DNA of 64,000 bases from an uncultured Thermoleophilia bacterium (GTDB lineage Bacteria > Actinomycetota > Thermoleophilia > UBA2241): the NCBI GenBank assembly GCA_963717285.1, contig CAVQVW010000004.1, positions 710,905-774,904 of the forward strand. The letters are read 5' to 3'. Below the pieces are notes generated by a model. That model did no database searches. It saw nothing but the letters and a program-made list of their open reading frames with translations, and was not told the origin of the DNA. The translations under genes were made by a program, and so were the position numbers. This document shows positions 25,028 to 60,508 of the stretch, piece by piece. Position 1 is the first letter of the stretch; every line of letters begins with the position of its first letter.

Positions 25028-25057
25028 GGCGTGACCGGACTCGATTCCTAGTGACCT

Positions 25058-37814: not shown

Positions 37815-38331
37815 TGGATCCCTTCAACCTGAGGATCTGCCTGCCCGTTCTCCATCGAACAAGGACTAGACAGTCCGTGTAGGTGCCAAACGCAGACGCC
37901 CCCTTCTGCATATGACGCTACCACGAGCCTGACACTGCGTCATTGGCAGATCGCGCAAGACCGCAAAGCCGTGCCCCAGTGCGGGCAGGGTGACATGACC
38001 GGACCCCATTCGTCGGTCCACTTCCTATGTTAGTCCCAAGGCCGCCTCGCGCATAGATGCCGCCGGGGCGAAGTCAGAGAGCGAGAAGCCCGGCCAGACG
38101 ATCGTCTCGGGTGCCGGCGGCCGTTGTCGCAGCAAGCTGTGCGGACGCAGGCCGTGTGCCGCCCAGTCCCAGCGCGTACCGTCCAGCACCATCGCGTGAC
38201 GCTGGGTTCGGTTGCAGGAGGGTTGCAGACGGGTTGCAGGAGAGGGTCGCCGGAATCCGTCGGAGCACGCAAAACCCCTGCATTTACCCCTGAAAGGGGG
38301 TGGTAGCGCATACGGAATTTGAACCCGTGTT

Positions 38332-43243: not shown

Positions 43244-43667
43244 GTGGTCTCACTCCCTTTCTCGCCTGGGGGCCGGCAACGGGCGCGGCCGCCTGGCTTG
43301 AACCGCGCTGCGCTACGGGAAGCGTGGCGCCTTGCTCGCCTCATCAGCGTTTATGAGCTACGCCGGTGCTTCTGTCAACGACCAGATCGCGCTCTAGGTG
43401 GCACACCCCGGTTCTAAATCGGCAGAACCGCTCGGAAGCCATAGCGCCCGAGTCCGCTGATCGTACGAATCAGGCTTCTCCTGAGGAGCTGCGCCGTCGT
43501 GACCGCACCCCATTCATCGGTCCACTTCCTATGCTAGTCCCAGGGCCACCTCCCGCATAGGTGCCGGCGAGGTGGAGTCGGAGGGCGTGAGGCCCGGGAA
43601 GACGCTCGTCCATGGAGTCGCTGGGCGTCCCGTTCGCTCCCATCCAAGTGCGGCGATTTGGGTTGCA

Positions 43668-44993: not shown

Positions 44994-45681
44994 GGTTGCA
45001 GACGGTCGCAGCGGGGTCCTCCGGAGGGCGCACAGAGCCCGATTCAGGCACGAATCGGTGGTGGGCCGCAGGGGAGTCGAACCGCTGACCTCCGCCGTGC
45101 AAGCCCAGCGAGTATTCTGCTAGTAGGTGCCGGGAAGGGCCGCCAAGTGCTGTCTCACGCGTAGGCTGAGAGGTGGGAGTGCCGGCGAGTACCGCTCAGC
45201 ATCATCGCGTGACGCTAGGGTCGGTTGCAGGAAGGTTGCACGCGAGGCATATCGGCGCGGCCAACGCACACTACCCTCCGCCACCGGCAGTGCCGATAAT
45301 GGTCAGCGGGCAGACGACGATCCGGATGAGTGCATCCCTCCGGACTTGCGGTCCTGCTGGTTCGCACACGTCTCCGACGCTACGGGAGGTATCTCTCTCT
45401 GCGCTGGGAGATCTCCGGGGTCATGTCGATCTTCAGATATGGCCGGCGGTAGGGAAGAGGTTCTCGTCTATCGTGCGACGTCGGGCGGTTTCTCGTCAGA
45501 CGTCGTCCCTTGCGTCGCTTGGCGATACTCTCCTCGGGGCGGTAGGTCTTGCCTGGCATGACGTGCTGCCTGATCGGTCGAGAGACCCTACAGTGAAGTT
45601 GGACCGATTTCAGGGGTGCAGGTCACCTTCTCGAACTGCGGCGGCACGGTCGGCTCCAAACGTTCGGGCTTCGCTGTGGTT

Positions 45682-46754
45682 TCAGAGCGCCGCCTCGGGC
45701 CGGCCGTCGATCCACTCGAGCAGCGCTGGCAGGCCGCGGTCGAGCTGCCAACCCGGGTGCCAGGACAGTTCCGCCGTCGCCGGCTCGATGTCACAACTGG
45801 CTGCGCGCACGTCCCCGTCGCGGAACTTAGCGACCACGGTCGGCTCGGGGGCGTCGCAGAGGGTAGCCAATCGGCGGGCGAGGTCATGGATGGTGGTTGC
45901 GACGCCGGAGCCAATGTCGAGGAGGCGTGGCTGCGGCGCAGGCTTTCTACAGCGGCGGCCAGCGCGTCGACGACGTCCTCGATGAACACGAAGTCGCGCA
46001 CGATCCGACCGTCCTCGTAGACCTCCAGAGGGCGTCGCGCCCGGGCCAATCGCGCGAAGAGGGACACGATTCCGGTGTACGGGTTGGTCAGCGACTGACC
46101 CGGCCCGTAGACGTTCTGGAGGCGCAGGACGCTGAGAGCAGAGCCGTGCGCCGCCGCCCAGGCCAGAAGCATGTGCTCTTGGGCGAGCTTGGTGGCGGCG
46201 TAGATGCTGGTGGGGTGGGCCTCCGTCCGGCGCGACGAACTCGGAAGTGGCACCGCCGCTCCGCCGTCGGCCCCCCGGGGATCCCAGAGACCGGCGGCGA
46301 GCTGCGCGTGGGTACGCGGGCCGGGGGAGAAAGACGTCCTCCCGCTTCGCCACGCGCCCTCGCCGTAGACGGCCCGTGACGACGCCAGCACGAGCTGGTG
46401 CGGCACTAGTCCAGCCCGGGTCAGGGCGTCGAGAAGCTGAGTGGTTCCCACTACGTTGACCGAACCATGACGCGTCGCCTCGGAGAGCGATTGCCCGGTC
46501 CCTGTCTCGGCCGCCAGGTGGACGACCTGTTCTGGCCTGACCAACCGCAGCACGGCCTCCCAGTCAGGCGCATGGGTGACGTCGCCGGTGAGCAGCAGCA
46601 CCGACGCTGGAAGTCCGGCGGGACGCCCGAAAGCGTGGACCTGGGGGTGAAGGGCATCCATCACGGCGACCTCGTAGCCGGCCGTGACGAGGCGCCGGGC
46701 AAGCGCGCACCCTATGAATCCTGCCCCGCCGGTGATGAGAACGGATGTTGACAA
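45682..46754 (-). pseudogene. NAD-dependent epimerase/dehydratase (UDP-sugar 4-epimerase-like), frameshifted near 45930
   Basis: VLITGGAGFIG, YAATK and a C-terminal ...GDVRAASCDIEPATAELSWHP found in a second frame. TTG start after a GGGAGGAG ribosome-binding site. Confidence 0.6.
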
Positions 46755-46834
46755 GAGTCGAACTCCTCCCAGACGAGGCCGCTCGACCGACGCTCTATCG
46801 CGAGGGTCGGGGGCCCATCTGCCCGCGCACCGCA

Positions 46835-47590
46835 TCAACCAGCCCCTGAACGTAGGCGCGCGCAATCGTGTGTTTCCGGACTGCAGGATTCTCCATGCGT
46901 TGAAGGCCGCGTATACCGTAAGGAGGCCGACCACCCGCGAGGTCCTGCGACCGCCCCTTCGGTCTCAAGCGCGAATCGCAACGGATTCCGAGCGAGGTAG
47001 TAGGCCATGTTCTCCGAGAGGCCCAAGCTGCCGCGACGACCACCACTCGCACTGACGGCGTGCGCGCAGAGGACTTCGCCGAGGTAGCGACACCTCCAGC
47101 CGGCAGCTCGGGCTCGCTGGCACCACTCGGTCTCGTCGTAGTACATGAAGTAGTCTGCTCGAAACGGGCCGAGCGATCGCCAGGCGGCCGACGAGACCAA
47201 GGCGCAGCATGGCGACACGTAGCCGGTGTCAGACGTCGCCGGCAGGGTAGCTGCGGGCCGGCGCAGTGCGCGGTGGCGCGGGTAGGCGAACCAGTCGCTC
47301 ACCTCACCACCCGCGAACCAGAGCAGGTCTGGCCGATCGGCGAAGGTCACGGCCGGACCAACCACGGCGATGCGCTCCCCCGCCGTCGCTTCGGCCAAAC
47401 ATCGGTTCAGGCAATCCGGATCGACCGTGGCATCGTTGTTGAGGAGCAGGGTCCAATCGACGTCCTGCGCAAGGGCATACTCCATCCCCGCGTTGTTGGC
47501 CGCCGCGACGCCCGTGTTCTCCGGAGTTCAATCAGAACGGTGCCCTCCGGCGCGCCCATCCGCAATCGGACACGTGTTCGGCGGAAGACC
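46835..47590 (-). pseudogene. family-2 glycosyltransferase with at least two frameshifts around 47500-47540
   Basis: N-terminal VTVNWGSPRDTLAALRSL...IICVDNGSS, then PENTGVAAANNAG, LLNND and WCQRARAAGW, distributed over three frames. Confidence 0.55.
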
Positions 47591-48929
47591 CGTTGTCCAC
47601 GCAGATGATCAGATCGGGCGGCGTGGTCATGGACTCCAGACTGCGCAGCGCTGCCAGCGTGTCCCTTGGCGAACCCCAGTTCACGGTCACGCTCGCCGTC
47701 TTCACCCTGTCCCTGCCTCCTCGACCCGCGATCACCTCACGGAAGACTCGCTCCCACGCCGCCACAACCACATTCGCAGAGTAGGCCGCCGCTCTCTTGC
47801 GACCCGCGGCTCCCATTCTGGCACGCAGGAGGGGTTCTGCAAGGAGTGCTTGGATGGCGCTTCGCAGCGCCGAAGCGTCTCCCGGCGGCACAAGGATCCC
47901 AGTGATGCCGTCCACGACCAGATCGGCCAATCCCCCCACCGCCGACGCTACAACCGGCCGTCCTGCTGCCATCGCCTCCAGGGCGACCATACCAAAGGGC
48001 TCCGGCCACACCGACGGCACCACGGCCGCGATGCAGTGGCCCCAGGCGCGGAGCACGTCCTCGTGCGGGACCTCCTCGGCGACGATGACGCCGCGGGGAA
48101 GCGCCGGGCGTATCGGGCCGCCGTATCCCGGCCACCACCAGCGGTAGCTTGGGCTGGAGTCCGGCCCATGCCTCCAACAGGACGTCGAGGCCCTTGTGTG
48201 GACCGAGCGCACCCGCGAACATGAGGTAGTCGCCCTCAGACGGTACGAACGCAGGACGTCCCCCTTTGCAGCGTGAAACGCCTCGTCCGACACGAAGGGC
48301 GGGATCACTTCCATGGCTCCGGTGCCGCGCCCGATCAGCCCCGCCGACGCTCCGGCCGTGACATGGCTGTTTGCGACGTAGCGATCCACGCGGCCGCGCC
48401 ACGGCTTCATGCCTGTCAGGCCACTCGTGAGCGCCAGCGACCGCAGTGCGCCGTACTGCTCTTCGGCACAGCCAACACACTTCGCGTACTCTGGACCCAT
48501 GCACACGCCGCCCCGGTAGACGAAGGTGGTCTTGGGGCAGATGAAGCCTTGGTCATGAACCCAGACGACGAGTCGCGTCTCCGGCGAGGGCAGCAGCGGC
48601 AGAAGCGAGTAGAGCAGCCACGAGTGCGCATGCACGATCTGAGGTCGGGTCTCTCTCAGGAGCCTGCGAGCACGCGAACAAGGCCTGGATCCGGCAGCGT
48701 GGGATGAAACGGCTTCTCGGGGTCGGCGTAGAGGCGCCCGAGAACTCGGCTCCACCCGGCGACTCGATGCACCTTCACGGGACCGTCAAGCTCGGTGCGC
48801 GGGCCTCTCGGTCCAGCTAGCGACACGGCCTCGACTTCATGACCGCGGCGGACCAACTCATGCGAGAGCATCCGGACCATGAGGTCACGCCCTCCGATCA
48901 GCGGAGGGGGGTAGCAGTCAACAGCCTCA
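47590..48929 (-). pseudogene. family-4 glycosyltransferase with multiple frameshifts
   Basis: N-terminal MRILEAVDCYPPPLIGG, middle GDYLMFAGALGPHKGLDVLLEAW, and C-terminal EPFGMVALEAMAAGRPVVAS, distributed over three frames. Confidence 0.55.
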
Positions 48930-49144
48930 AGGATTCTCATCTCAGATCCGATCCGGCCTGACTTGGGTCGACTGGTGGCTGTCCCCGGGCGCCCTGCGCT
49001 CATGCTTGATCAGCTGGAGCGACACGGCGTTGAGCTGCGCCTCGACCATGCCGTCACGATGTGCCATGTGGGTGCAGCTTGGCTTGCCCTCGGCGGAGGT
49101 GGCAGGCCTCGGAGTTCGAACGCCCCCAGCAATGACCGCGGCGT

Positions 49145-50337
49145 TCATCGTCGCAGGCCCCATAGACGGGCCCGGCAGACCGTGTGCGAGTGATCGATCT
49201 GTTCCATCAACTGTCCATACATGGTGACTGTCCGGTCCCAGGAATGGGGGTCTCCGAATCGCCGTCCGCGCAGATCGGGAAGTCGGCGAAGAGCGTCTCG
49301 CAGCGCTACGGGGTCATGCGGGGGAACCAGGATGGCTCCCCCGTAGTCCGCGACGGCCGCCGGCAGGCCACCAACGGCCGTGATGACCAACGGCAGTCCG
49401 TTGCTCATCGCCACATGGGCGGGGGAACTGGCTGACGACCGGTGATACGGCAGGACGACCGCGTCGGCGCCAGCGAAGTGTGCGACTACCTCGTCATCGT
49501 CTACGAAATGGTTGACCAATGTAATCCGCGCGCGATGACGACTGCTCTGTATCAGCTTGATGGGCAGGTCCCAGCCCTCCCAGGTCTCTCCGACGACCGT
49601 CAGCCAGTACCGCTTCACTTCCTCGTCGTCGAGGATATCGAATGCCTCGGACGAGATCTTCGAGTCCTTTGTAGGGACGAATGATGCCGAAGAATAGGAG
49701 ATTGAGCGTGTCGGCGAGGGGCTGTGCGACGAACGAGTGGTGCTGGTCCGTTGTTCGGGTGTCTTGACGCGTGGTGATCCAAGGGCCCATGGGGAATGGC
49801 GACGCAAGGTCGGGCACGCAGCCGGTAGCGCTTCTCGAGCGGCTCTCGGTCAGCCTCCGAGTGGATTACGAAGGCCGACGCCAATCGGAAGAAGGGTCGC
49901 CCCAGTGTCCGCACCCATGCCCGCGCGATCCGGATTCGCTCTTCGCCGCTGTCGAGCACCTCGTGAAACTCGACGATGACGTGAGCTCCTTGAAGCCGGG
50001 CCATCAGGGCAATTACCAGGTAGGTGTGGAGCACTGTTCCCGTCCACCACTCGAAAATGACGAAGTCAGGCCTGAACCTCCTGAGGCTGCTCAAGTCCCG
50101 AGAGAGGTTCGGTACCCAGAACCAGTCGATGCCTTGCAGCACCTGCACGGCAGGGTCGTACCGCAGCCGAGTGCTCGTGGACCCAACGCGCGAGCGTCCG
50201 GGATAGAGGAAGGTGGGGATGAGCTGACGCATGGGGACAACGGCGACCGAGAACTGCCCGGCGAGTGCGTTGGTCAGTCGGATAGTGTAGTAGCTCATGG
50301 CGCTGAGGAAGCGGGTACCGGCACCGACGACCAGCAC
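49145..50337 (-). pseudogene. second family-4 glycosyltransferase with frameshifts
   Basis: N-terminal domain (49615-51063 frame), middle LLFFGIIRPYKGLEDLV (49494-49817 frame) and C-terminal ...LPLVITAVGGLPAAV (49145-49807 frame). Confidence 0.5.
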
Positions 50338-50414
50338 TCGCGGCGCCGTACTCTCCCGGTAGCCGGTCGCTGACGTTCTCAGAGGCTCACGATTGGAGCT
50401 TCGACAATGGGTCT

Positions 50415-50816
50415 TCAAGATCCGGCTCCTTTCGACGCACCCCCGTGGCCCCGTTGTCTGGATAGTAGCCGCCGCGAGCACGCATACACCGCCCAGCAGG
50501 AGAATATGACCGTGCAAGCTCCGAGCACGACTGCCAGTGACAGCCGGGAGAGCCCTATCGGCGTGGCCCCGAGAAGCACGGCCGCACTGATCGCCACCGC
50601 AAGACTCATGCCAACACTGGCGAGCAGGCGTTCCCCGCGGGAGAACTTGCCGCTCAGGAAGCACGGAACAGACAAGAGCGAACCCGGGCAAACGAAAACG
50701 ATCAACACCCCAAGCGCGATTCGCGCCGCCTGGGGGACCGCGACGTAGGCCGTCGCCACGGTCAGAAGGCCGACGAGGCAGGAGCCGACGAGTAGAACAA
50801 TGCGTTCCCGCTTCAT
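50415..50816 (-). CDS. hypothetical membrane protein
   Basis: The start is MKRERIVLLVGSCLVGLL, followed by 3-4 TM helices. Confidence 0.35.
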   Translation of the reverse strand: MKRERIVLLVGSCLVGLLTVATAYVAVPQAARIALGVLIVFVCPGSLLSVPCFLSGKFSRGERLLASVGMSLAVAISAAVLLGATPIGLSRLSLAVVLGACTVIFSCWAVYACSRRLLSRQRGHGGASKGAGS

Positions 50817-50989
50817 GGTGACGACCCGCCAATGGTCTTGGGCGACGCTGCCGGCGCGGGACGCAAGACCCGTTTTCGATTCGCGATACATCGAAGATCT
50901 TGGACGGCCCCAGAATCGTAGACCAAATGGATGCACGGGGTGGAAGCGAACTTCTCCAACGCCGCCGCCGGGAACACTTGCCGGTATTC

Positions 50990-52776
50990 CCCGGCACCGG
51001 GCTCAAAGGGGCTGAAGTAGTAGCCGGGGGATGCGGGAAGCCCCTTGCCATTCGCCAGTCCACCAGGAGGTAGCGGACTCTTGCCGACCGTTGATGCTGT
51101 CCACGACGGTGCCATCATCGTCCTCGGCGAAGAAGATCGGCCAAACGGTGTTCTGCGCGAGTGTGTCCTGCTCTCCGTAGGTGGCGAGCGCGAATGAATC
51201 AAGCTGGTTCGCGCCGAAACGCTGGTCGATGCCCTAGCTGCTCGCGTGCCCACTTCGAGGCACTGATTACGTCCGGCTGGACCGACCACGGATAGCCCTG
51301 CGAGTTCGGTGGCTCTGGCAGCCGTTGGTAGAACGCCGTCCCAATGGTCACTTCCCCGATGAACACCACCGTCACGAGGCCTGTGGCCACTGCCGTTGCG
51401 TGCCTGGCTCCTGCAGTCCCGAGCCATGGAAGCGCAGGTGGTGCCGCCCGAGTCCGACCCCGGCGATGCCGCCGCCAGGTCGCCCCTGCGGCCAGCAGCC
51501 CTACAGCGCACCCGAGTCCCGCGAAGACGTATGCCGAGGACCGGCCTGATATGGCGACGCCGTCGGGAGCAAGTCGCGGCATCAGGCTCAACGGAAAGGC
51601 AATAGCGACACCGATGGCAACGGCCATCGGGGGACGGAGTCCGGACGGCCCCAGGCTCGAATAGAGGGCCACAGGTAGAGTCAGCAGAAGCACGCCGACA
51701 GCGGCGAAACCGGCGACAGTCTCCCAAGCTGGGGAGGCGTAGCCACCGCTCGCATAGAGCTGGCGCGGCGCAGTCTCGCCGAGCAACAGAGAGCCCGTCT
51801 GCCGCAGGGCAGGAAGGATGTTGTTCGGGAAGAGGTAGGATGCTGCTGGGTCCGCGACGAAGAGGAGCCACGCCAGGGTCGTGGTCCCGGCCACAAGGGT
51901 CATGAGCCCGACAAGCGTGCGTCGCGGTCTGACACACGATACGGCCGCAGTCTACGATAGGTGTGGATCAGACCAGCCACCACGCACCCAGAAGCGCCGA
52001 GAGGGCGAGCCCGACGACATGGTGAGTGACGGCTACTGCGACGATCGCGAGGGCCGTAACGGCCAGTGCCGGACGACCTCTCCCTCGACGCGTGCGTCCA
52101 AGCCACCAGACGACAAACGTCGCGAGCGGGAGCGCCAGGTTCTCATAGGAGAAGGCGGCAGCCCAGAACAGGAACATCGGGTTGGCGGCGTAGACGAGGC
52201 TGGCTGCAGCCGCTGCCCGACCTGATCCCGTGACCCTCTCTGCGATCAAGAAGAAGCAGGCGGAGAAGAGAACGCGTGCGACGCCGATGATGAGGAGGCC
52301 CGACGCGAAGGGGCCGAGGCCGGTGAGGTGCACGAAGCCCGCCGTGACCGCGGCCAGCCCTGGGTAGTAGGTCGCCGTTGGCAGCAGCGGGTTGGATGCG
52401 AAGAGACGGTGAGTGCGAAGGATGTCTCTGGGTGCTCCGCAGGTGGACGTACTCATCGCTGAACGTGAACGCGGTCTGGAGAACCGAGGACTTTGACGAG
52501 ATAGAGGGCAACGCCGAGAAGGATGACAAGCGTCAGCCGCTCGCGTCGATCAGTGTGTTGCATCAAGACGCGGAAAGCGATGGGAACGAAGATCAGGAGC
52601 AGACCGAGCCAGAAGAACGCTGACGCCTTGCTGTACCCATACCCGTGACGGCTCATTGCGTCCGCAACTGCGACAGAGACTAGGCCTAGCGCGGCGCAGA
52701 GCGCGACGGCGGACATCCATCGGCGGTCGAAATGAGCGTCCTCGTGCAAGGTCCGAGCCTCGAGGGGCTGCGTCAT
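50990..52776 (-). pseudogene. large polytopic membrane protein, GT-C-fold glycosyltransferase-like (PMT/arabinosyltransferase-like), at least three frameshifts
   Basis: Segments 52453-52776, 51968-52456 (...ATYYPGL...) and 51199-51903, plus a soluble C-terminal piece ending ...TGEWQGASRIPRLLLQPL, are all on the minus strand in shifting frames. Confidence 0.45.
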
Positions 52777-53021
52777 GGCTGCGAAGGTCCGTTCCCGAGG
52801 CCCTCAGGCCTTCGGACCCTGCCGTTCGAGGCCGTATGTCGACGCGACGGGAGAGAGTGGCCGCCCACTACGCTGGTCAGCCAGCCGGCCCGGTAAGGAC
52901 GACGACTACGACGTCGTGACCGCGCCGGGCAAGTTCACGCACGAGCGCGCCTGCGTGGAGGGCAAACTCACCGACTGGAGACGGAAGGACGCAGTCGATG
53001 GCCTGGAAGATGCGCATCACA

Positions 53022-54284
53022 CTATTCTCTCATCCCTGGACTCTGTGCCACGGGTGCCAGAGTTGATGACCGCAGCAAGTCGAGTACCACGAATCCGCAC
53101 CCGAGCAATTGCATGGCAAGAAACGCCCATCCAACCGCGATGATGCCAAGCACAGGCAGAAGAACCCAGGACAGCGCCACGATGCCGATGCCCATGCCCA
53201 GATTGAGTCCAGCGGCGGCGACAAGCCTTCCACGAACTCGCAGCACGGCGACGTACACGTTGGTGATGGCGTCGAAGACCGAGGCGAGCAGCACGACGCG
53301 CAGCAGTCCTGTGGCCTGTAGCTCGTAGGCGGGACCGAGCGCAGAAAGCAGGATGCCGCCCAGAGCGAGAACGCCTACCACCGCCGGTGCGAGTATCGCG
53401 AGAATGATCACTAGTGCAGAGCGAGCCTTCGCACGCAAGTCCTCTGGGCTGTGGACGCCCTCGGCGAACAGGGATGCGGACACCGCGGGCGCTATGATCA
53501 GGAAGATCCCGGCGATCATCCATGTAGTGTAGAAGTACGCGTTGTCACTCGCGGAGAGCCGCGCCGTTACCAGCAGAGGCAGCAGGTACGGCAGCAGCGC
53601 CCCCCCCATGCCTATCAACTGGTGGCCCGCGAGACGGGAGCGCAGTCCTCGTGCCGTGCGTATGAGGGCCGACGGCCCCGGTGGCTGCAGGAGACTGACC
53701 CGCCGGGTCAGGAGACCTGTGCCGAGGCCGAGTCCGACAACGGCAGCTACGGCCCAAGCGCCGAGTAGACTCAGCGGGCTCGTAGTGCCGACCACCAGGG
53801 TGAGGAGAACGACGATGAGGACCTTGCTGGCAGCGACGCCCGAGTTGCGGCCCAGCATGTTCCCCGCCGCTCGCTCGGCGATGAAGGCGTAGTCGAGGAT
53901 GGCGCCAGCGGTCATGGCCACCGTGCCGACGGCAAACACCGTCGCGTACGTTGCACCATGGAGTACAGCCAGCTGCTCGGCGACGAGCGGCAGCAAGACA
54001 AGCGCGGCGCATCCCAGTACCAGGCTCGTGACGATAGCGGATGTCAGCCCTGCCCAGAACGTGAGTGACCAGCCCGCTGGCTTCTGCCGCTGGGGAAGCG
54101 ACTGGATGAGCGTGCCGCCAACTCCGAGACTGGCCAGGAGAAGCACGATCGTGCTGGCGGAGATGACCGCGGCGGTCAGGCCGACGACCTGCGCCGGGAA
54201 GAGGCGCGCGGCCAGGAGCCAGTATAGGAAGCCAAGTGCTGAGTTCACGACCGTGGTCGCCATGATGAACAGGCTGTTCCGCAT
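53022..54284 (-). CDS. polysaccharide biosynthesis protein / Wzx-like flippase (MOP superfamily)
   Basis: About 420 aa with roughly 12 TM helices and MRNSLFIMATTVVNSALGFLYW at the N-terminus. Confidence 0.65.
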   Translation of the reverse strand: MRNSLFIMATTVVNSALGFLYWLLAARLFPAQVVGLTAAVISASTIVLLLASLGVGGTLIQSLPQRQKPAGWSLTFWAGLTSAIVTSLVLGCAALVLLPLVAEQLAVLHGATYATVFAVGTVAMTAGAILDYAFIAERAAGNMLGRNSGVAASKVLIVVLLTLVVGTTSPLSLLGAWAVAAVVGLGLGTGLLTRRVSLLQPPGPSALIRTARGLRSRLAGHQLIGMGGALLPYLLPLLVTARLSASDNAYFYTTWMIAGIFLIIAPAVSASLFAEGVHSPEDLRAKARSALVIILAILAPAVVGVLALGGILLSALGPAYELQATGLLRVVLLASVFDAITNVYVAVLRVRGRLVAAAGLNLGMGIGIVALSWVLLPVLGIIAVGWAFLAMQLLGCGFVVLDLLRSSTLAPVAQSPGMRE

Positions 54285-54513
54285 CAGCGAGTCACGACGG
54301 ACACGACCTAACAGCACCCCGGGAGACCACCAGAATCGGGACCAGCGACTCTCGCTAGCGCAGGCGGTGGATGCAGGAGGCGGGGCATGCTTCACCCGCC
54401 AGGTTCTCCGTACTCTGGGGCCTGACGGCGTCGATGCTGGGGGTCGAGCGGCATGGGTTTCGGTTGACGCCGCTGGGCGCTCCCAGTTGGTCTCTCGAGG
54501 GTCCATCGCCATC

Positions 54514-55390
54514 CTACCCTCGATCAGCAGGGTCTAGAGAAAAGGCGTGGATGGTCACACCCAGCCCCGACAGTAGCCCGTCGTCTCCCGCGCACGGCGC
54601 TGTGCGAACGAGCCCCAGGACCGAGTCGGCGCGGAATGGGAGGCGTACGCGTGCGATCTCCGCGGTTCGTAGAATGCAGTAGACCAACTGCCAGGGAACA
54701 GGAACAAGCCTGCAACGTCGACCTTCTTGTGCCGCGAGTGCCTTCAGCAGGTCCGGGAGCACTATGGGGGTTGGATGCGCGACGGAGATCGTGTCGGGCT
54801 GCAGGGTGTCAACTGCGGCAAGTGCACGAATGGCCATCACTAGGTCGTCTTCATGCACCGTGCATAGACCGACCCCGCCAGCAATCACCGGAACGATCGG
54901 CAGCCTGGTGAGCTTTCGAAGCGCCCCGGCCATGCCGCCAGGTCGCCTGCCGTAAACCAAGCCCGGCCGCACAGCGCAACCACCGAATGCCATGGTCATG
55001 GCCTCGATGTCCAGCTTGGCTCGCCCGTACAGCTGTCTGGTCCCTTCGTATGCGGACATACTTGACAGAACGAGGATGCGGCGCACCCCGGCGTCCGCTG
55101 CAGCTTCCAGCAAGCGACGTGAGCCTTCCACATTCACCCGCCAAATGTCGACAGGGCTTGTCAGTGATAGGTCGTATGCCGCATGCACTAGGACGTCTGC
55201 CGAGCGCAGGACCTCTTTCACTTCAGCGCTGACTGACTCGGCGAGGCCGTAGGCGACGGCCGGTCCGCGCCTCCTGCTCGGAGATCGGACGAGCCCGACA
55301 ACCTGCCACCCACCGCGATTCCAGGCTCGCACATACTCGGGACCCGAGGTAGCCAGAGGCTCCGGTGACAGCGGCTACCGGTGCTGACGC
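54514..55390 (-). CDS. NAD-dependent epimerase/dehydratase-family SDR with an N-terminal frameshift (~55330); DprE2-like partner of the upstream oxidase
   Basis: Rossmann motif VAAVTGASGYLGS lies in the frame of ORF 55223-55516. The remainder lies in the frame of ORF 54514-55332. Confidence 0.5.
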
Positions 55391-55392
55391 AG

Positions 55393-56991
55393 TCAAGGGG
55401 CGAGCTCTAGGCTCTCGGATGCGATTCGGTGGGCGTTGGCCATGACCGTGAGCGTGAAGGTCATCGCCGGCACGTTGGGAAAGACGGATGCGTCCACGAT
55501 GTGAATCCGCCGCCAAGACCCCACGCGACCCAGTCGGTCACTGCCGAAGACCGTTGACCTGCAGTTTGTATGGGGGAAGCTACCGCCCCAGTGATAGCTC
55601 TTGCCGCCGGCAGCTAGCCGGAGCAATGGCAGCACCGGATAGAGATCAAGCAGGGGAGCCGACTGGACCAGTCTCGCCAGCACCGTGGCCAGCATCCGAT
55701 TGCGGCCTGCGGGTACCGTGTCCCTGGAGATGTGCATTGCCGGAGGATTTGCGCTGCTGGAACCGGGCCGCGCACGAACAGACAGCCGAGGTGACCTCCA
55801 CGACGGCAAGTACCCGAAAGCGACAGTCAGTCGACGTAGCAGTTGCGTCCGAGCTCGTTCCGCTGCATGACCTCGAAGCGGCGACGGCAGGGCGCTCGTG
55901 AATGCGGAGTTGAATGTGTAGAAATGGAGCTGGGACATGTCGACTGGGCTTTCATCGAGCGCGACGATCATGTTGAACTGATTCAGGGTGAAGTCGGGCT
56001 TTCGTCGAGGATCCGGAGTCGCGCGCAGAGACACCATGGGCAAGATGAACTGCTGCGATTCGAGCATGGCTATGTCAATGCCCCATAGGCCCAAAGAATC
56101 GGCGACGAGCCTAGTGGTTCCCATCGCCCCGCACGCGACGTAGACGCGATCAGCCTCGAATTGCCGCATTCGTCCGGTCGCGATTTCCTTGGCGATGACG
56201 AGGGCCCTGCTAGCCTCCTCCGCAACCTTGGTGACCAATAAGCCGCTGTGATGCGTCACTCGGCCAGAGCAACGTAGAGCGTCGAACGTCTGCGCGGCCG
56301 AGTAGATCAGACCATATGGACAACCAGTCATACAAAGACCACATCGAACGCAGCTCGTCGCGTCGAAGGCCAGTCGAGCTTTTCCGATCGTGACTTCTCG
56401 GCCTTGGAGCGCCGATCGATGCCGTTCGTAGGCGTCCAGTACCCGCCGGCTCCTGGGGGACAACTGCGGGAGTGGGGCCGGCTGCCCCATCAGGGGGAAG
56501 CTGGCAGCAAGATCGTCCTCCTCACCGGCGAACGGGATCTGACGAAGAATCGACTCGTAGTGAGGTCGGATCACCGCGGCGCTGATAGGCCAGCTCTCAA
56601 AGGTGGATGCAGTGAACGGCATCAGCTGGGAGCCCCAAACCGTGCTGAAACCGCCGTAGGCCGCTGAAACGAGCGACGTGGTCGCATCTGACGCGGCGGT
56701 GAGTCCGTCAAGCTGTCCGACGTTCCGGAACGGATAGTTCGACCCGAATAGACGCTTCTCCGGAACGCCGCGCGTCTTCGAGTTCACCGGCCCCTCAGAG
56801 ATGCCATCGACCAGCGCTGCATCCCAGTCGGCAGCCTCCAAGGAGGCCAGGACGTCGACGAGCTGCTGACGCTCCGGTTCAAGTTGAAGGCCAACCTCGA
56901 TGACGGTGATTCCGAGGTCCCCGCGACGGCTCAGCGCGAGGGCAGCAGCTGCAGCAGCGGGTCCGGTACCGATGATGAGGGCCGTGGTCAC
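55393..56991 (-). CDS. GMC-family FAD-dependent oxidoreductase
   Basis: N-terminal ALIIGTGPAAAAAALALS FAD-binding fold and C-terminal ...HWGGSFPH...IHIVDASVFPNVPAMTFTLTVMANAHRIA. Its stop overlaps the start of the downstream SDR. Confidence 0.65.
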   Translation of the reverse strand: MTTALIIGTGPAAAAAALALSRRGDLGITVIEVGLQLEPERQQLVDVLASLEAADWDAALVDGISEGPVNSKTRGVPEKRLFGSNYPFRNVGQLDGLTAASDATTSLVSAAYGGFSTVWGSQLMPFTASTFESWPISAAVIRPHYESILRQIPFAGEEDDLAASFPLMGQPAPLPQLSPRSRRVLDAYERHRSALQGREVTIGKARLAFDATSCVRCGLCMTGCPYGLIYSAAQTFDALRCSGRVTHHSGLLVTKVAEEASRALVIAKEIATGRMRQFEADRVYVACGAMGTTRLVADSLGLWGIDIAMLESQQFILPMVSLRATPDPRRKPDFTLNQFNMIVALDESPVDMSQLHFYTFNSAFTSALPSPLRGHAAERARTQLLRRLTVAFGYLPSWRSPRLSVRARPGSSSANPPAMHISRDTVPAGRNRMLATVLARLVQSAPLLDLYPVLPLLRLAAGGKSYHWGGSFPHTNCRSTVFGSDRLGRVGSWRRIHIVDASVFPNVPAMTFTLTVMANAHRIASESLELAP

Positions 56992-57253
56992 AACGTCACC
57001 CGCCCTCCACTGTGAACCGAGCGTGTTCGGCGTTGTCTCGTCCTCGCATTGAGCTGTTCGATCTCTCCTCGAGGGTGGGCGAACCTGTCGGCACAGTCAC
57101 CTCGACGATGAGCCGACAACCGGGACTGGAATCCCGACAGCCCGGTGCGCAATCGCCTTGGTGCGTCTTATGCAGTGATGCGTCACTTGGCGAAGAGTGG
57201 AAGACCATCTGTCGCTCTACGCCGTTGCTGCACACGTAGGCCGGCAGCGAAGG

Positions 57254-58213
57254 TCAAATGGCCATGGCGATTGGCTGGCGCCGCCGGTCGACGCCGGTGC
57301 GGCGCTCGTGGGTCATGAATCGGTTCTCTCTGCGCCTTTCCGTTATGCGCCGGTCGACGATATGCGCCTCCAGTGCTGGCGTCGACGCGACCGACGGAAG
57401 CCGCATTGGCGCTACTTCGGCACGACCGGTCCTGTGGCGTCGCTGCCAGGCACTGAGCACTCGGCGCCGTTTCTCGGTTTCAGAGACAATCGTGCGGAGT
57501 ACCCTCAGACCGTCCCTGACGGCGCTCAGGTTGCTGGCGCCATGAAGTCGGCGGTGCTCATAGCTCGGAACTTCAACAACCGTGAGGCCGGCCGCGGCCA
57601 CGCGGATGTTGATCAGGGTCTCAATCTCGAAACCGTCGCCCCACAAGCGCCCGTCACCTCCCGCCGGGGCGGGGGATTGCCAGTCAAGGCCGAGGACGGG
57701 AAGGCATGTGCTCGCCCAGAACGCGTTGTATCCGTAGCACAAGTCGCTGTAGCCTGTCCGACACAGGGCGTTCACCAACCGCATGAGGAAGCGATTGCCA
57801 GCGCGGCGAAACCGGGTGATGTCCGCGCTTCCGCCACCTCTGGTGAATCGGCTTCCCTTGGCGAAGTCTGCGCCGGCGGCCAGCGCATCCACGAAACGGG
57901 GGATTTCCGCAGGATCAGCGGAACCGTCTGCATCCAGCATCACTATCACGTCGCCCGAACACGCCGCAAAACCGCAGGCGAGCGCGTTGCCCTTCCCGCG
58001 TCTCGTCTGCGGGATCACTCGCACGTCGCTGCGTAGCCGCCGTGCAGCCTCCGGAGTCCCATCTGTGGACCCTCCGTCGACCAAGACGACCTCGAAGATG
58101 CTCTCGGGCAGAGCGGCGAGCACGTGTTCGAGGTTCTTCGCTTCATTCAACGCCGGAATGACGACGCTCACCTCCGGACGGCTCCTGCGCAACTCGCTGT
58201 CCGGTCTGTTCAT
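57254..58213 (-). CDS. GT2 polyprenyl-phosphate glycosyltransferase (DPM1/ArnC-like)
   Basis: VSVVIPALNEAKNL...VVLVDGGSTDGT...MLDADGSADP. Confidence 0.7.
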   Translation of the reverse strand: MNRPDSELRRSRPEVSVVIPALNEAKNLEHVLAALPESIFEVVLVDGGSTDGTPEAARRLRSDVRVIPQTRRGKGNALACGFAACSGDVIVMLDADGSADPAEIPRFVDALAAGADFAKGSRFTRGGGSADITRFRRAGNRFLMRLVNALCRTGYSDLCYGYNAFWASTCLPVLGLDWQSPAPAGGDGRLWGDGFEIETLINIRVAAAGLTVVEVPSYEHRRLHGASNLSAVRDGLRVLRTIVSETEKRRRVLSAWQRRHRTGRAEVAPMRLPSVASTPALEAHIVDRRITERRRENRFMTHERRTGVDRRRQPIAMAI

Positions 58214-58514
58214 GAGCCTGCCTTCACGGTCGGTGCGCGTGTTCGGAATAGTATACTTCGAGCACTTGACGCATCCGCGCAACTTCGTTGCCTCGACTGG
58301 CAACACCCTGTGTCTGTGAGGACTCGTCAATCCGCCTTTAACCGCACGGTCAGGGGCAGGGGACCTGACCGGACCCCATTCATCGGTCGACCTCCCGCAT
58401 AGGTACCGGCGCGGCGTAGTCGGAGAGGGAGAAGCCCGGGAAGACTATCGTCTCGGGTGCTGGCCGTCACTGCCTTCCCAGTGTCGTGCAGTGCCAGCGA
58501 TCGCCGCCCAGCAC

Positions 58515-58810
58515 CATCCAGTGACGCCAGGTTCGGTTGCAGGAGGGTTGCAGGCGGGCTGCAGAGAGGGGCCTGCGGAATCCTCTGGAGCACGCAAAAC
58601 CCCTGCATTTACGTTTGAAGAGGAGTGGTAGCGCATACGGGATTTGAACCCGTGTTACCGCCGTGAGAGGGCTGTATCCTAGTGTCAGGTAGTGCCCCTG
58701 AGTGCCACGGAGTGCCGTTCCACGCGTAGAGAATCGGGTCGATCTGCCACTGAGTGCCATTGCGTGCCACCCAGTGACGCCAGGTGCGGTTGCAGGAGGG
58801 CTGCAAGCGG
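58515..58810 (-). repeat. Composite A-C-A repeat element (minus orientation), intact copy
   Basis: A' modules at 58515-58560 and 58775-58810. C core at 58625-58700 ends (reverse complement) ...GGTTCAAATCCCGTATGCGCTACCA. Confidence 0.8.
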
Positions 58811-59026
58811 AGGCAGATCGGGGCATCCCGCCCTGGTTCATTCACTGGTCCACTCCCCACGATGGGATGAGGGCCGCTCCCTCAAGTGAGTGTCGGTCGT
58901 GCCCTTGCGATCTGCTGAGGTTCGGCTCGCCCGACTCGACTAGCGAGTCCGCCCGTCGATTGTGAACGCCGCCGCCAGTGTGGTTTCGAGACTGCCTAGT
59001 GGACCACCACTCGTGGCCATGCCCGC

Positions 59027-60295: not shown

Positions 60296-60419
60296 CCACG
60301 TAGTCAAGGACCTGACCCTCGAGCTTCTACAACAGTCTGCGCCCGCACAGCTGGCTGGGGCAACGCCCGCTGGCACCGGAGACAATCGCCTTCCCCGCTT
60401 CTCGCTCGCTGACCACGGG

Positions 60420-60490
60420 CCGCCGAAACCTATGCCGGAGGTGGCTCTGGGACTATCGTGGGAAGAGGACCGATGAACGGTGCCCGGTGA
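60420..60490 (+). repeat. B-module copy (right inverted repeat of the IS481/IS3-like element), preceded by the last ~50 codons of the transposase (60296-60420)
   Basis: 60296-60490 is the reverse complement of 8545-8735. Confidence 0.75.
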
Positions 60491-60508
60491 GGCCGATCTT
60501 CGGGTAGT

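Follow-up and report, generated by a model that had tools for sequence, protein, structure and literature searches.

A co-directional gene island with a GMC flavoprotein–SDR module in an uncultured Thermoleophilia bacterium: a possible route of extracytoplasmic glycosylation on a polyprenyl-phosphate carrier

Modification of a lipid-bound sugar, followed by flipping through a MOP/MATE-type protein and transfer by a GT-C enzyme, has precedents in the DprE1/DprE2 pathway and in ORF13 of C. youngae (PMC11127046). In FAD-dependent glucose dehydrogenase (FAD-GDH), a 3Fe-4S cluster of the catalytic subunit is the primary acceptor of the electrons of FAD (PMC9727119). Here we compare with these systems an 11-gene island at 45682-58171, all on the minus strand, in a window of 64,000 nucleotides from an uncultured Thermoleophilia bacterium (contig CAVQVW010000004.1). 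Our best explanation, held as a whole with slightly less than even confidence, is that the region represents a self-contained, co-directional island for extracytoplasmic glycosylation on a polyprenyl-phosphate carrier.

Gene coordinates in the window were transferred from the intact orthologous island of a sister strain (L083), in which 4-nt overlaps join the GMC and SDR genes, the GT-C, DUF1616, GT4a and orf68 genes, and the GT4b and GT2b genes. Gene calls are supported by Pfam, NCBIfam and PDB matches, and the GT-C call rests on its fold. The mapping bears out the gene content, order and common strand given by the first-pass annotation; most of its calls hold, and it had overlooked a DUF1616 membrane protein and the small orf68.

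The gene at 57254-58171 is intact (305 aa by ortholog gene call) and encodes a Dpm1/AglJ/ArnC-like GT2 glycosyltransferase. It differs from L083 at two positions, both synonymous. The protein matches PF00535 at 1.4e-29. Among NCBIfam models AglJ scores best (3.4e-33), ahead of Dol-P-hexose transferase, ArnC and PpgS, and none of them reaches its curated cut-off; the best PDB match is the P. furiosus Dol-P-Man synthase 5mlz (8.7e-18), followed by ArnC, GpgS and GtrB. No obvious transmembrane segment is found in this GT2. The nearest relatives, Dol-P-mannose synthase, AglJ and ArnC, are polyprenyl-phosphate sugar synthases, in keeping with the earlier DPM1/ArnC-like label, and we regard the protein as a candidate polyprenyl-phosphate hexose synthase.

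The intact gene at 55393-56991 encodes a 532 aa flavoprotein of the GMC superfamily that resembles FAD-GDH. On its own, the sequence matches Pfam weakly (GMC_oxred_N 6e-4, GMC_oxred_C 1e-3, Fer4_6 2.6e-6). A profile of 125 family sequences places the catalytic subunit of B. cepacia FAD-GDH (6a2u_B/8hdd_A) at the top of the PDB with 4.5e-17, aligned over three collinear stretches that include the Cys-rich Fe-S region. Pyranose oxidases, cellobiose dehydrogenase, C-glycoside oxidases and fructose dehydrogenase follow, and the closest solved relatives, namely FAD-GDH, pyranose 2-oxidases and C-glycoside 3-oxidases, act on sugars or glycosides. The iron-sulfur motif CxxCxxCxxxCP spans residues 214-225. 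Among the 125 diverse members C220 and C224 are invariant (window-protein numbering), C214, C217, H467 and N519 are kept in at least 90%, and H474 and H521 are invariant only within 45 close relatives. The AlphaFold model is poor (pLDDT 46), so that fold-search matches carry little weight alone. Judged by its sequence, the protein is better described as a dehydrogenase with an FAD-GDH-type Fe-S site than as a plain oxidase; of the earlier label "GMC FAD oxidase", the superfamily stands and the word oxidase does not. Since the protein belongs to the GMC superfamily and not to the VAO type, it is not a homologue of DprE1. Clustering at 50% identity divides the family into about 1,000 clusters; we found no description of it in the literature.

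An extended SDR of the 3-beta-HSD/epimerase type is encoded at 54514-55396 (293 aa in intact orthologs). Its TGxxGxxG and S...YxxxK motifs are read from the L083 translation, and Pfam Epimerase is matched at 5.9e-11 by the window fragment and at 6.8e-19 by the L001 ortholog. In the window the gene is broken by one inserted T at 55312, directly past the TGxxGxxG motif. L083, L001 and L084, relatives in which both genes are intact, show a 4-nt overlap between the SDR gene and the GMC stop codon, in line with the overlap proposed earlier, and the SDR gene is translationally coupled to the flavoprotein gene.

This flavoprotein–SDR arrangement is conserved. Of 81 related loci, 71 have the SDR gene as the immediate downstream neighbour of the GMC gene, and lipid-carrier-type GT2 genes are near in most: a Dpm1/AglJ-like GT2 occurs within 10 kb in 44 loci, an AglG-like GT2 in 56, and one or both in 72. 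In most relatives, including Frankia and Mesorhizobium, the gene directly upstream of GMC is the AglG-like GT2 (NCBIfam AglG, 1e-47). A Wzx-like gene is found in 34 of the 81 loci, a GT-C gene in 29 (24 of them also with a Dpm1-like GT2) and a GT4b-like gene in 25. The module stands beside polyprenyl-phosphate-type GT2 genes in many Actinomycetota and also in Dormibacterota, Mesorhizobium and an Oscillatoria MAG. In about ten of the 81 loci, from Kineococcus, Geodermatophilus, Modestobacter, Blastococcus and a Propionibacteriaceae MAG, GMC follows an AglG-like GT2 and no SDR was detected, so the reductase step is not universal. A secreted GH16 gene lies alongside the module in 38 of the 81 loci.

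Three membrane proteins follow. The intact gene at 53022-54506, with one nucleotide difference from L083, encodes a candidate MOP-superfamily (Wzx/PST-type) flippase. PF01943 is weak in the window protein (2.6e-3) and is found in 14 of the 24 family proteins, at 2.6e-9 in the best case; the family profile reaches 0.004 against MurJ (5t77). The earlier Wzx assignment holds at this Wzx/MOP-like level. The GT-C gene (50813-52749) is split into at least three ORFs by 13 indels in the window and encodes 636 aa in L083. The AlphaFold model of an ortholog (P0123) reaches pLDDT 81 and pTM 0.81, and all 22 Foldseek matches in the PDB at E ≤ 0.001 are GT-C enzymes, with STT3/PglB/AglB at 1e-8 to 4e-5, DPY19 at 1.5e-7, ArnT at 1.7e-4 and AftA at 2.3e-4. 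An invariant D-E pair lies within the first loop (TFxDEYIHLR). Pfam matches are partial only (DUF6541 in 8 of 43 members, PMT_2 in 2 of 43); the protein has no WWDYG-type motif and only a short C-terminal domain. The predicted structure identifies this protein as a GT-C fold transferase, in support of the earlier description as a GT-C-like polytopic protein. The small DUF1616-like membrane protein (50415-50816; Pfam DUF1616 at 1.4e-5, PF07760 on the L083 and L084 orthologs) carries four indels in two compensating pairs that leave the ORF open (50415-50936). Translational coupling links its gene in L083 with the GT-C gene on one side and GT4a on the other. The DUF1616 family was described from archaeal sequences.

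The island ends, as previously annotated, with two GT4 genes, a GT2 and an epimerase, all supported by Pfam or NCBIfam matches. GT4a (49145-50418, 423 aa in L083) contains two +1 insertions with frameshifts near 49715 and 49647, and its fragments match Glycos_transf_1 and Glyco_transf_4. The small orf68 (48942-49148) shows no indels against L083, where it has a 4-nt overlap with the GT4a stop, and is called as a gene both there and in a Logan contig; no family match is recorded for it. GT4b (47702-48880, 394 aa in L083) has four deletions and matches Glycos_transf_1 at 2e-24. The rhamnosyltransferase/GlfT1-like GT2b (46795-47705, 304 aa in L083) has four 1-nt deletions; the window fragment matches Pfam GT2 families and the L083 ortholog an NCBIfam rhamnosyltransferase subfamily at 3.6e-21. 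The NDP-sugar epimerase/4,6-dehydratase-type extended SDR (45682-46661, 326 aa in L083) has a 1-nt deletion near 45942 and matches Pfam Epimerase (2e-46) and the NCBIfam models for dTDP-glucose 4,6-dehydratase (3e-27) and GalE (5e-23).

A pathway can be proposed from these parts. The Dpm1/AglJ-like GT2 would place a hexose on polyprenyl phosphate at the cytoplasmic membrane face. The cytoplasmic flavoprotein would then oxidise the lipid-bound sugar, turning one of its ring hydroxyls into a ketone, with electrons passing from FAD through the Fe-S centre to a further acceptor, and the SDR would reduce the ketone with NAD(P)H, the simplest product being an epimer. The GT4 and GT2 enzymes would lengthen the lipid-linked sugar or else make its acceptor, the MOP protein would flip the lipid-linked glycan, and the GT-C protein would move it onto an envelope acceptor. 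The combination of a polyprenyl-phosphate-type GT2, a GT-C protein, a Wzx/MOP protein, a non-VAO GMC flavoprotein and the conserved module makes DprE1/DprE2-like logic plausible. Through guilt by association, the GMC/SDR pair can reasonably be inferred to oxidise and then reduce a lipid-linked sugar; the logic would be the same as in DprE1/DprE2, whereas the proteins are unrelated to them.

The window itself had been taken to show a decaying pathway with at least eight of about eleven genes frameshifted. Relative to L083, seven genes carry 29 genic indels (SDR 1, GT-C 13, DUF1616 4, GT4a 2, GT4b 4, GT2b 4, epimerase 1), the compensated DUF1616 gene among them, and the GT2, GMC, Wzx-like and orf68 genes are indel-free. 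The decay is apparent in this one assembly only, and local consensus error seems somewhat more probable to us than evolutionary decay. All 11 genes are intact in the sister-strain island, which is 97.3% identical overall, and in the independent Logan contig; over 80 further loci likewise keep the core genes as open reading frames, with the exception of a broken GMC gene in L061, the island of the nearest representative in GTDB. The indel spectrum, too, looks technical rather than evolutionary. Bacterial indels are usually biased towards deletion and repeat slippage; here most of them lie outside homopolymers and simple repeats, and there are 17 insertions to 12 deletions. Across GT2 to Wzx (about 99.8% identity) the strains differ by 11 substitutions, and the adjoining 7 kb holds 28 frame-breaking indels, so that true decay would need an indel rate close to the substitution rate. 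The near-identical DUF1616 and GT4a segment has an indel:mismatch ratio of 6:6. The intergenic DNA of this genome pair, by contrast, has a mismatch:indel ratio of 79:11 (about 7:1), and about half of its indels fall within simple repeats. Mismatches by codon position in GT4b (19:14:49 for 82 in scored codons of 83 in total), GT2b (10:6:37) and the epimerase gene (11:10:32) show the third-position bias of purifying selection, and none of the substitutions gave rise to a new stop codon. The claim of decay is weak and, as originally worded, unsupported.

Real, very recent strain-specific pseudogenisation, for example with the GT-C gene lost first and frameshifts now accumulating, nevertheless keeps a substantial, if lesser, probability. 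The indels cluster in the island, with 29 in 11.75 kb of its coding sequence against 2 in 10.45 kb of flanking coding sequence, as compared with a sister-strain contig; with the rest of the window this clean, any sequencing error must be local. The GT-C gene has the most lesions, and its window-specific substitutions are spread 10:9:9 over codon positions as expected without selection. Dispersed repeats border the island and IS elements lie near. The broken GMC gene of L061 would fit as well, but it comes from a long-read, Nanopore-only MAG (PMC12313526).

As to the pathway, the AglG-like GT2 upstream of GMC in most relatives and the co-travelling GT4 genes mean that an Agl-like polyprenyl-phosphate-oligosaccharide route fits as well as a single-sugar DPA-like one, which qualifies the DprE1/DprE2-like scheme of the first-pass annotation, although its logic is plausible and its module sits tightly beside lipid-carrier GT2 genes. 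In such an archaeal-type route, which we consider rather unlikely in its specific form, the AglJ-like GT2 would start a polyprenyl-monophosphate oligosaccharide, the GT4 and GT2 enzymes (in relatives also the AglG-like GT2) would extend it and GMC/SDR would tailor one residue; the Wzx-like protein would flip the whole glycan and the GT-C protein transfer it en bloc to protein or wall, rather than adding a single epimerised sugar. The best NCBIfam names, AglJ for the window GT2 and AglG (glucosyl-Dol-P glucuronosyltransferase) for the upstream GT2 of relatives, point this way, but every score is far under the equivalog cut-offs. The best GT-C fold matches are the oligosaccharyltransferases; this likeness is generic to GT-C enzymes (TM about 0.5), and the missing WWDYG-type motif and short C-terminal domain speak against it. 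The GT4b-like gene in the conserved set and the archaeal background of DUF1616 are consistent with an Agl-like route. No phosphoglycosyl-transferase-type initiator was called in L083, L001 or L084, which fits the pathway proposed above and an Agl-like route alike.

It is distinctly unlikely that the GMC/SDR pair is unrelated to a lipid-linked sugar and instead makes or recycles a soluble keto- or epi-sugar, free or nucleotide-activated, or acts on finished polysaccharide. FAD-GDH, pyranose oxidase and cellobiose dehydrogenase do use free sugars, and the accompanying GH16 genes hint at glucan metabolism. Unlike periplasmic FAD-GDH complexes, however, the flavoprotein has no signal peptide, hitch-hiker subunit or cytochrome partner, and the tightest neighbours of the module are lipid-carrier-type GT2 genes. 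To our knowledge, nucleotide sugars are normally tailored by SDR or aminotransferase enzymes and not by GMC flavoproteins. An ordinary Wzx/Wzy-dependent polysaccharide cluster, suggested by the Wzx-like gene, several cytoplasmic glycosyltransferases and a polytopic membrane protein without a Pfam match that would be a Wzy polymerase or O-antigen ligase, is very improbable and disfavoured by the confidently modelled GT-C fold of that protein, its exclusively GT-C fold matches, its first-loop D-E pair, its co-occurrence with the Dpm1-like GT2 and the absence of an initiating phosphoglycosyl transferase from the L083 island.

Upstream, the island is bordered at 58352-58823 by copies of two dispersed intergenic repeat families (from a set comprising D1, D2, D7, D10, D11, D15 and D16), and blastn homology to L083 stops at 58814. 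The downstream border (45168-45371) contains a copy of the same dispersed repeat at 45168-45268; homology reaches 45371, which is the end of the L083 locus as retrieved. The nearby transposases had been described as intact. This applies to an IS110 at 43908-44969 and to an IS256 copy at 38389-39627, whereas a second IS256 copy at 62113-63359 is split over two frames.

The minus strand of the window (G+C about 65%) carries a run of glycan-assembly genes from 45.7 to 58.2 kb. The flavoprotein encoded in this island (55393–56991, minus strand, 532 aa) has a 100% identical counterpart in the database, encoded on the 777-kb contig from which the window comes. Sister contigs were reached through members of the 90%-identity protein clusters of the window genes. 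One of these, L083 (ENA contig_74084, analysis ERZ25039600), carries a member of the same 90%-identity cluster of the flavoprotein, and its positions 8178–21594 align with window positions 58814–45371 at 97.3% identity. All island genes are intact in L083, with the same content and order as in the window. They encode a GT2 (305 aa), the flavoprotein (532 aa), an SDR (293 aa), a Wzx-like protein (494 aa), a large membrane protein (636 aa), a DUF1616 protein (132 aa), a GT4 (GT4a, 423 aa), a 68-aa ORF (orf68), a further GT4 (GT4b, 394 aa), a further GT2 (GT2b, 304 aa) and an epimerase/dehydratase (326 aa). Overlaps of 4 nt join flavoprotein and SDR, the series membrane protein, DUF1616, GT4 and orf68, and a GT4 with a GT2 gene. 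An independent Logan assembly of run ERR15459714 contains the same genes intact, with the epimerase called at 357 instead of 326 aa. Window gene coordinates were obtained by mapping the L083 genes back onto the window, and because they map back, the gene list of the first-pass annotation is right in substance; the DUF1616 gene and orf68 had been overlooked.

The upstream flanks of the two islands differ, with SBBP-repeat and WD40/RCC1 proteins in L083 and a GmrSD/Schlafen gene in the window (beyond 58814). The downstream limit of homology (below 45371) is the end of the L083 locus as retrieved. Divergence between the islands is mosaic: GT2 to Wzx and DUF1616–GT4a differ by about 0.2%, whereas the 3' half of the membrane protein gene, GT4b, GT2b and the epimerase differ by 3–7%. 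Together, mosaic divergence and the differing upstream flank suggest recombination or mobility of the island.

The frameshifts in the window copy had been read as a pathway in decay. They are indeed present. Aligned by MAFFT, the island and L083 differ by 341 mismatches and 32 indels, and 29 of the indels lie within genes: 13 in the membrane protein gene, four each in DUF1616, GT4b and GT2b, two in GT4a, one each in the SDR (54514–55396, minus strand) and the epimerase, and none in GT2, flavoprotein, Wzx-like gene and orf68. Frameshift-aware protein-to-DNA alignment with more distant orthologs from loci L001 and L051, which covered SDR, membrane protein and GT4a, puts the frameshifts of these genes at positions that agree to within a few bases. 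The reading as decay does not hold for the family, since the sister strain has an intact island and the arrangement is widely conserved. The second sister contig L086 (234 kb, same ENA sample) is syntenic with window positions 1–19838, at 99.5% identity in one block and 98.4% in the other, and differs from the window by 13 indels, of which 2 lie in called genes. Since the comparison with L086 yields only these two genic indels, and Pfam shows many further genes of the window to be full-length, the indel enrichment is specific to the island and not assembly-wide.

We lean towards a local consensus error as the origin of the island indels, caused for example by very few reads or by mixed strains over a strain-variable island. 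A real and very recent strain-specific inactivation is plausible, though we regard it as somewhat doubtful, and several properties of the indels speak against it. From GT2 to Wzx, window and L083 differ by 11 substitutions in 5.1 kb, whereas the adjoining 7 kb contain 28 frame-breaking indels, and in the near-identical DUF1616–GT4a stretch indels are as frequent as mismatches (6:6). This is unlike the natural spectrum of intergenic DNA between window and L086, where the ratio of mismatches to indels is 79:11 and about half of the indels fall in homopolymers or short repeats. The island indels are mostly single bases in non-repeat contexts, such as GCAGCT[A]GGGC and GTCCAA[G]ATC, and the genic insertions (17) exceed the deletions (12). 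They are also oddly segregated along the island, with nearly all insertions at 49.6–55.3 kb and deletions for all nine genic indels at 45.9–48.7 kb. Recent inactivation also has to be set against GT4b, GT2b and the epimerase, which are 5–7% diverged from L083. Their mismatches are distributed over the codon positions as 19:14:49, 10:6:37 and 11:10:32, respectively, and substitutions have created no new stop codon in any of the three. From this third-position bias and the absence of new stops it follows that their divergence is between functional alleles. The membrane protein gene is the only one in which window-specific substitutions are evenly spread over the codon positions (10:9:9), which fits either neutrality or error. 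Its indels show no significant mutual compensation, with the frame back to zero after 5 of 13 events against about 4.3 expected. The apparent pseudogenisation is probably not biological, and frameshift clusters in a MAG should be compared with a sister strain before they are read as genome decay.

A window-wide frameshift scan by GC3 frame-plot and codon-usage Viterbi was discarded. With a GC3 of only about 0.7 in the island genes the signal did not suffice, and even the flavoprotein and SDR genes were missed. In L061, a long-read Acidimicrobiales MAG and the closest GTDB species representative, the flavoprotein gene (10072–11603) lies in three ORFs with an in-frame stop and a frameshift, and several neighbouring island genes are fragmented as well. 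L061 and many related loci belong to the Microflora Danica MAGs. These are Nanopore-only assemblies with one round of Medaka polishing, for which the authors report coverage-related errors (PMC12313526).

The flavoprotein had been called a GMC oxidase. Taken alone, it matches GMC_oxred_N and GMC_oxred_C of Pfam below threshold (20.1 against a gathering score of 23, and 20.0 against 24.6). The family is settled by a deep sequence profile searched against the PDB. Built from 125 sequences out of a family-wide search of cluster representatives, the profile has its best match, at 4.5e-17, in the FAD-glucose dehydrogenase of Burkholderia cepacia (catalytic subunit; 6a2u, 8hdd), in three collinear stretches (3–35, 126–300 and 462–524), and then pyranose oxidases, cellobiose dehydrogenase, C-glycoside oxidases, cholesterol oxidase and fructose dehydrogenase. 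The hallmarks of the GMC superfamily are found, namely the GxGxxG FAD fold, collinear N- and C-domains and the C-terminal His...Asn/His pair; all 125 members share G8 and G10, and at least 90% of them have H467 and N519. The protein also carries a ferredoxin-type CxxCxxCxxxCP motif, and the form of it seen in the family, 'CvyCglClyGCP', is matched in the alignment by 'CCgnnnCmpiCP' of 6a2u/8hdd. Two of the cysteines (C220, C224) never vary and the other two (C214, C217) are at least 90% conserved, so that the Cys-rich region at about residue 210–225 of the GMC fold, typical for the Fe-S site of FADGDH-type enzymes, is present. The profile match to FAD-GDH and the aligned Cys motif point to a GMC-superfamily dehydrogenase with a predicted Fe-S relay. 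Assignment to the GMC superfamily is therefore upheld, and so is the contrast to vanillyl-alcohol-oxidase-type enzymes, since the profile matches are GMC enzymes; the label of a simple oxidase has to be given up. An AlphaFold model of the flavoprotein, built on an alignment of 45 members with at least 65% identity, is poor (pLDDT 46), and its Foldseek matches to pyranose 2-oxidases and C-glycoside oxidases lend weak support.

The B. cepacia enzyme is the closest solved homolog, with the same three-segment GMC architecture and the Fe-S Cys region at the same position. In FAD-GDH, the Fe-S cluster is the primary acceptor of electrons from FAD (PMC9727119). The island protein differs from the FAD-glucose, fructose and 2-ketogluconate dehydrogenase complexes, which are periplasmic, act on free sugars, are TAT-exported with a hitch-hiker subunit and are coupled to a tri-haem cytochrome c. 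It has no export signal, as the sequence opens directly with the Rossmann motif. The genes around it in L083 and in the ortholog loci L001 and L084 include neither a hitch-hiker small subunit nor a cytochrome, so that the TAT route and cytochrome c subunit of FADGDH-type enzymes are both missing, and the gene sits in a glycan-assembly operon. The Cys motifs differ as well, being ferredoxin-like in the flavoprotein and CCx4Cx3C in the complexes. The partner SDR is of the extended 3-beta-HSD/epimerase type, with TGASGYLG (TGxxGxxG), a Ser and YGRAK within 293 aa and Pfam matches to Epimerase and 3Beta_HSD.

The GT2 at 57254–58171 matches PF00535 at 1.4e-29, and its best named relatives in NCBIfam and PDB searches are polyprenyl-phosphate glycosyltransferases. 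In NCBIfam these are AglJ (3.4e-33), followed by a halophile Dol-P-hexose transferase, ArnC and PpgS (3.6e-11); in the PDB, Pyrococcus Dol-P-mannose synthase comes first (8.7e-18), before ArnC, GpgS and GtrB. Since every NCBIfam score is below its curated cut-off (115 bits against 325 for AglJ), polyprenyl phosphate is no more than the putative acceptor. No transmembrane segment is seen in the GT2 sequence.

The large membrane protein has no Pfam or NCBIfam match. AlphaFold gives a confident model for an ortholog with 77% identity (pLDDT 81, pTM 0.81), and all 22 Foldseek matches in the PDB with E ≤ 0.001 are GT-C enzymes (STT3/PglB/AglB, DPY19, ArnT, AftA), which bears out the first-pass proposal of a GT-C. 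The polytopic GT-C fold is accompanied by an acidic motif in the first extracytoplasmic loop, where the pair D116–E117 in 'TFxDEYIHLR' is invariant among 43 homologs. In Pfam, members of the family have only DUF6541 or weak PMT_2 matches, and the family is not listed there as GT-C. Because neither the consensus nor the list of conserved columns contains a WWDxG/WWDYG-type motif, the protein is a GT-C that is not a canonical oligosaccharyltransferase. Membership in the STT3/PglB/AglB group is out on these grounds and through the short C-terminal soluble part of only about 170 aa; a Wzy polymerase or ligase is ruled out by the fold. In the Wzx-like family, PF01943 is matched by 14 of 24 members (best 2.6e-9), with the window protein below threshold at 2.6e-3, and the family profile matches MurJ weakly (0.004).

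The arrangement is conserved well beyond the sister strain. A scan of one genome per GTDB species gave 80 loci, mostly from Acidimicrobiia MAGs and otherwise from Frankia sp. QA3, Kineococcus, Geodermatophilus, Modestobacter, Georgenia alba, Mesorhizobium, Dormibacterota and an Oscillatoria MAG. With L001 added, 81 loci were analysed by tblastn and de novo ORF clustering, and all counts are lower bounds because many loci end with the contig. The SDR gene lies immediately 3' of the flavoprotein gene in 71 of the 81 loci. A Dpm1/AglJ-like GT2 occurs within 10 kb in 44. Genes of a second GT2 family, for which AglG (glucosyl-dolichyl-phosphate glucuronosyltransferase) is the top name in NCBIfam (1e-47, under the cut-off), are close by in 56 loci and immediately precede the flavoprotein gene in Frankia, Mesorhizobium, Kineococcus and others. 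One or both of these GT2 types occur in 72 loci. Wzx-like genes are found in 34, GT4b-like genes in 25 and secreted GH16 in 38; the GT-C occurs in 29, 24 of which also have the Dpm1-like GT2. Since roughly ten loci have the flavoprotein with no detectable SDR, the putative reductive step would not be universal. When 1.84 billion cluster representatives were searched with a family profile, 974 clusters passed E ≤ 1e-30 and 2,263 passed E ≤ 1e-10; almost all of the proteins have full length, about 520–540 aa. Our literature searches found no description of a GT2–GMC–SDR module. We conclude that the GMC/SDR module is widespread and uncharacterised.

In the cultured organisms Frankia sp. QA3 (2330–13856 of its locus) and Mesorhizobium mediterraneum (2386–16666), an AglG-like GT2 lies 5' of flavoprotein and SDR and a secreted KRE6/SKN1-like GH16 lies 3'. 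The Frankia locus has the full set (AglJ-like GT2, GT4, GT-C, Wzx-like, AglG-like GT2, GMC, SDR and GH16) as one uninterrupted row on the same strand. The Mesorhizobium GH16 has RTX repeats, and its locus also contains a GINT1_N-domain protein, a GH5 and a methyltransferase.

The components of the island and their linkage are observed directly, and a course of reactions may be read from this context. The GT2 would load a hexose onto polyprenyl phosphate, and the flavo-Fe-S dehydrogenase would take a ring hydroxyl of the lipid-bound sugar to a ketone. The SDR would then reduce the ketone, most simply to the epimer, the MOP protein would flip the product, and the GT-C would use it outside the membrane. 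By the same context, the island would be classed as polyprenyl-phosphate-dependent, GT-C-mediated extracytoplasmic glycosylation with a donor modified on the lipid. A variant on the model of the haloarchaeal Agl pathway, with a polyprenyl-P-oligosaccharide assembled first and then handed over en bloc, fits equally well. It agrees with the presence of AglJ-like and AglG-like GT2 genes, with the GT4 that travels with the set, with the DUF1616 partner and with the lack of another initiator, as none of the phosphoglycosyl-transferase type is among the called genes of L083, L001 and L084. The Haloferax volcanii Agl system (AglJ, AglG, AglR, AglS, AglB) supplies the best family names for both types of GT2 seen in the loci. 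A GT-C and a DUF1616 protein are common to it and the island, as would be a Wzx-like flippase and a monophosphate carrier. It differs in that the island proteins score far under the equivalog cut-offs, the hosts are bacteria and the GT-C lacks a WWDYG-type motif. To our knowledge, no GMC/SDR pair is part of the Agl pathway.

The stepwise epimerisation proposed here resembles mycobacterial DprE1/DprE2 (decaprenyl-phosphoryl-ribose 2'-epimerase), which with the flippase Rv3789 and GT-C arabinosyltransferases likewise combine oxidation by a flavoenzyme, re-reduction by an SDR on polyprenyl phosphate, flipping and GT-C transfer. In the DprE1/DprE2 neighbourhood, carrier-loading enzyme, oxidoreductase pair, flippase and GT-C lie together (PMC11127046), as is proposed for the island. 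This combination of genes makes the parallel drawn in the first-pass annotation plausible as logic; it does not extend to family membership of either enzyme, as the defining features are missing. DprE1 is a VAO/PCMH-type flavoprotein, whereas the island enzyme has a GMC fold with an Fe-S site and no homology to it. Membership in the DprE1 family is excluded by profile matches to GMC enzymes (4.5e-17) and by the lack of any Pfam match to PF01565 (FAD_binding_4) or PF04030, and the protein would be an analogue of DprE1 at most. The SDR, extended and with TGASGYLG in 293 aa, is likewise not of the DprE2 type, a classical SDR (adh_short, about 250 aa, TGxxxGxG). The carrier sugar would be loaded by a GT2, probably from a nucleotide hexose, in contrast to the UbiA-type PRPP transferase of the DprE system, and the candidate flippase is of the MOP type instead of SMR or GtrA.

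Three-component pentofuranose side-chain systems of Citrobacter youngae O1/O2 (ORF12–15; Kelly et al. 2024, PMC11127046) offer a second comparison. There, UndP-ribofuranose is turned into UndP-xylofuranose by the SDR ORF13, and only then do MATE-type flipping and transfer by the GT-C follow (PMC11127046). Polyprenyl-P-sugar donor, optional cytoplasmic epimerase on the lipid-linked sugar, MOP-superfamily (MATE) flippase and GT-C correspond to our proposal. In contrast, donor synthesis there starts from PRPP and needs phosphoribosyl transferase and phosphatase, and one SDR suffices for epimerisation (PMC11127046), where the island has a GT2 and the dehydrogenase/SDR pair. Among Actinomycetota, the mycobacterial PpgS (Rv3631)/Rv3779 and Ppm1/PMT systems follow the scheme proposed for the island, with polyprenyl-P-sugar synthesis by a GT2 that is soluble or peripheral and use of this sugar by a GT-C outside the membrane. 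We know of no oxidoreductase pair and no dedicated MOP flippase in either.

Few cases of sugar remodelling after loading onto a lipid carrier are known, namely DprE1/E2, ArnD, NaxD and one Citrobacter SDR, and DprE1 is a major tuberculosis drug target. As a tentative proposal, with the odds rather against it, the GMC flavo-Fe-S dehydrogenase and its coupled extended SDR may form a previously unrecognised two-enzyme epimerase, or keto-sugar former, for polyprenyl-phosphate-linked sugars. It would be of independent origin from DprE1/DprE2 and widespread (about 1,000 clusters at 50% identity). Its product would go to a family of uncharacterised GT-C enzymes of soil Actinomycetota, Dormibacterota, Mesorhizobium and some cyanobacteria, and the pathway around it may be a bacterial equivalent of Agl. 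If true, a second, unrelated enzyme pair would carry out the same type of chemistry and the strategy would have arisen more than once. A function would also be given to a large uncharacterised GMC subfamily with an Fe-S centre, together with a pointer to unknown envelope glycans in abundant, mostly uncultured soil Actinomycetota.

Two dispersed intergenic repeat families of about 60–180 nt, with core sequences that include GTGACGCTAGGTTCGGTTGCAGGAGGGTTGCAG and GACCGGACCCCATTCGTCGGTCCACTTCC, occur in at least 10 copies each in the 64 kb, in both orientations and often adjacent. Copies of family D1/D2 lie at 18514–18598, 18984–19068, 31406–31490, 35343–35427, 38155–38239, 45168–45252 and 58480–58564, with reverse copies at 6959–7042, 15338–15421 and 25039–25122. 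Family D3/D5/D10 is found at 8575–8666, 28581–28672, 31247–31338, 37998–38089, 43502–43593 and 58352–58394, and in reverse at 6787–6883, 10624–10720 and 60395–60491. The copies flank the island, are present in L083 and L086 and border a 3.7-kb segment (6884–10563) that is missing from L086. The ORFs of this segment encode a GNAT-type acetyltransferase domain (7370–8554) and a partial SNF2-related domain (9059–10375). The window scan gave no Rfam match for these repeats, which could be MITE-like, REP-like or structured RNA.

The transposases near the island had been described as intact. This is correct for an IS110-family transposase (43908–44969, plus strand) and for one IS256/Mutator copy (38389–39627, minus strand, full length, 1e-138), and not for the other IS256/Mutator copy (62113–63359, plus strand), which is split in two frames (Pfam profile 40–270, then 191–365). 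The ORF next to the island (59027–60790, minus strand) matches GmrSD_C weakly (0.006) and Schlafen/AlbA_2 clearly (1e-17), and is probably a DNA-modification-dependent restriction or defence gene. Its first roughly 170 codons look over-extended, and local G+C falls to about 0.61. Two complete Usp domains in adjacent ORFs of different frames (26719–27833, minus strand) are ambiguous between two single-domain genes and one tandem-Usp gene with a linker frameshift, and were left out of the frameshift evidence. Internal tandem repeats with a unit of about 130–140 nt ('...QIDQGQVVW...' units) occur at 14166–14804 (plus strand) within the ORF 14204–15130, and an 18-nt-periodic GGC/GAG-rich tract lies at 42686–42835. 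A 300-nt direct repeat (20195–20494 and 21466–21765, 92% identity, 1.27 kb apart) covers the region of a 201-aa ORF (20057–20662) and the start of an NmrA-like gene (21469–22401), and may be a partial duplication.
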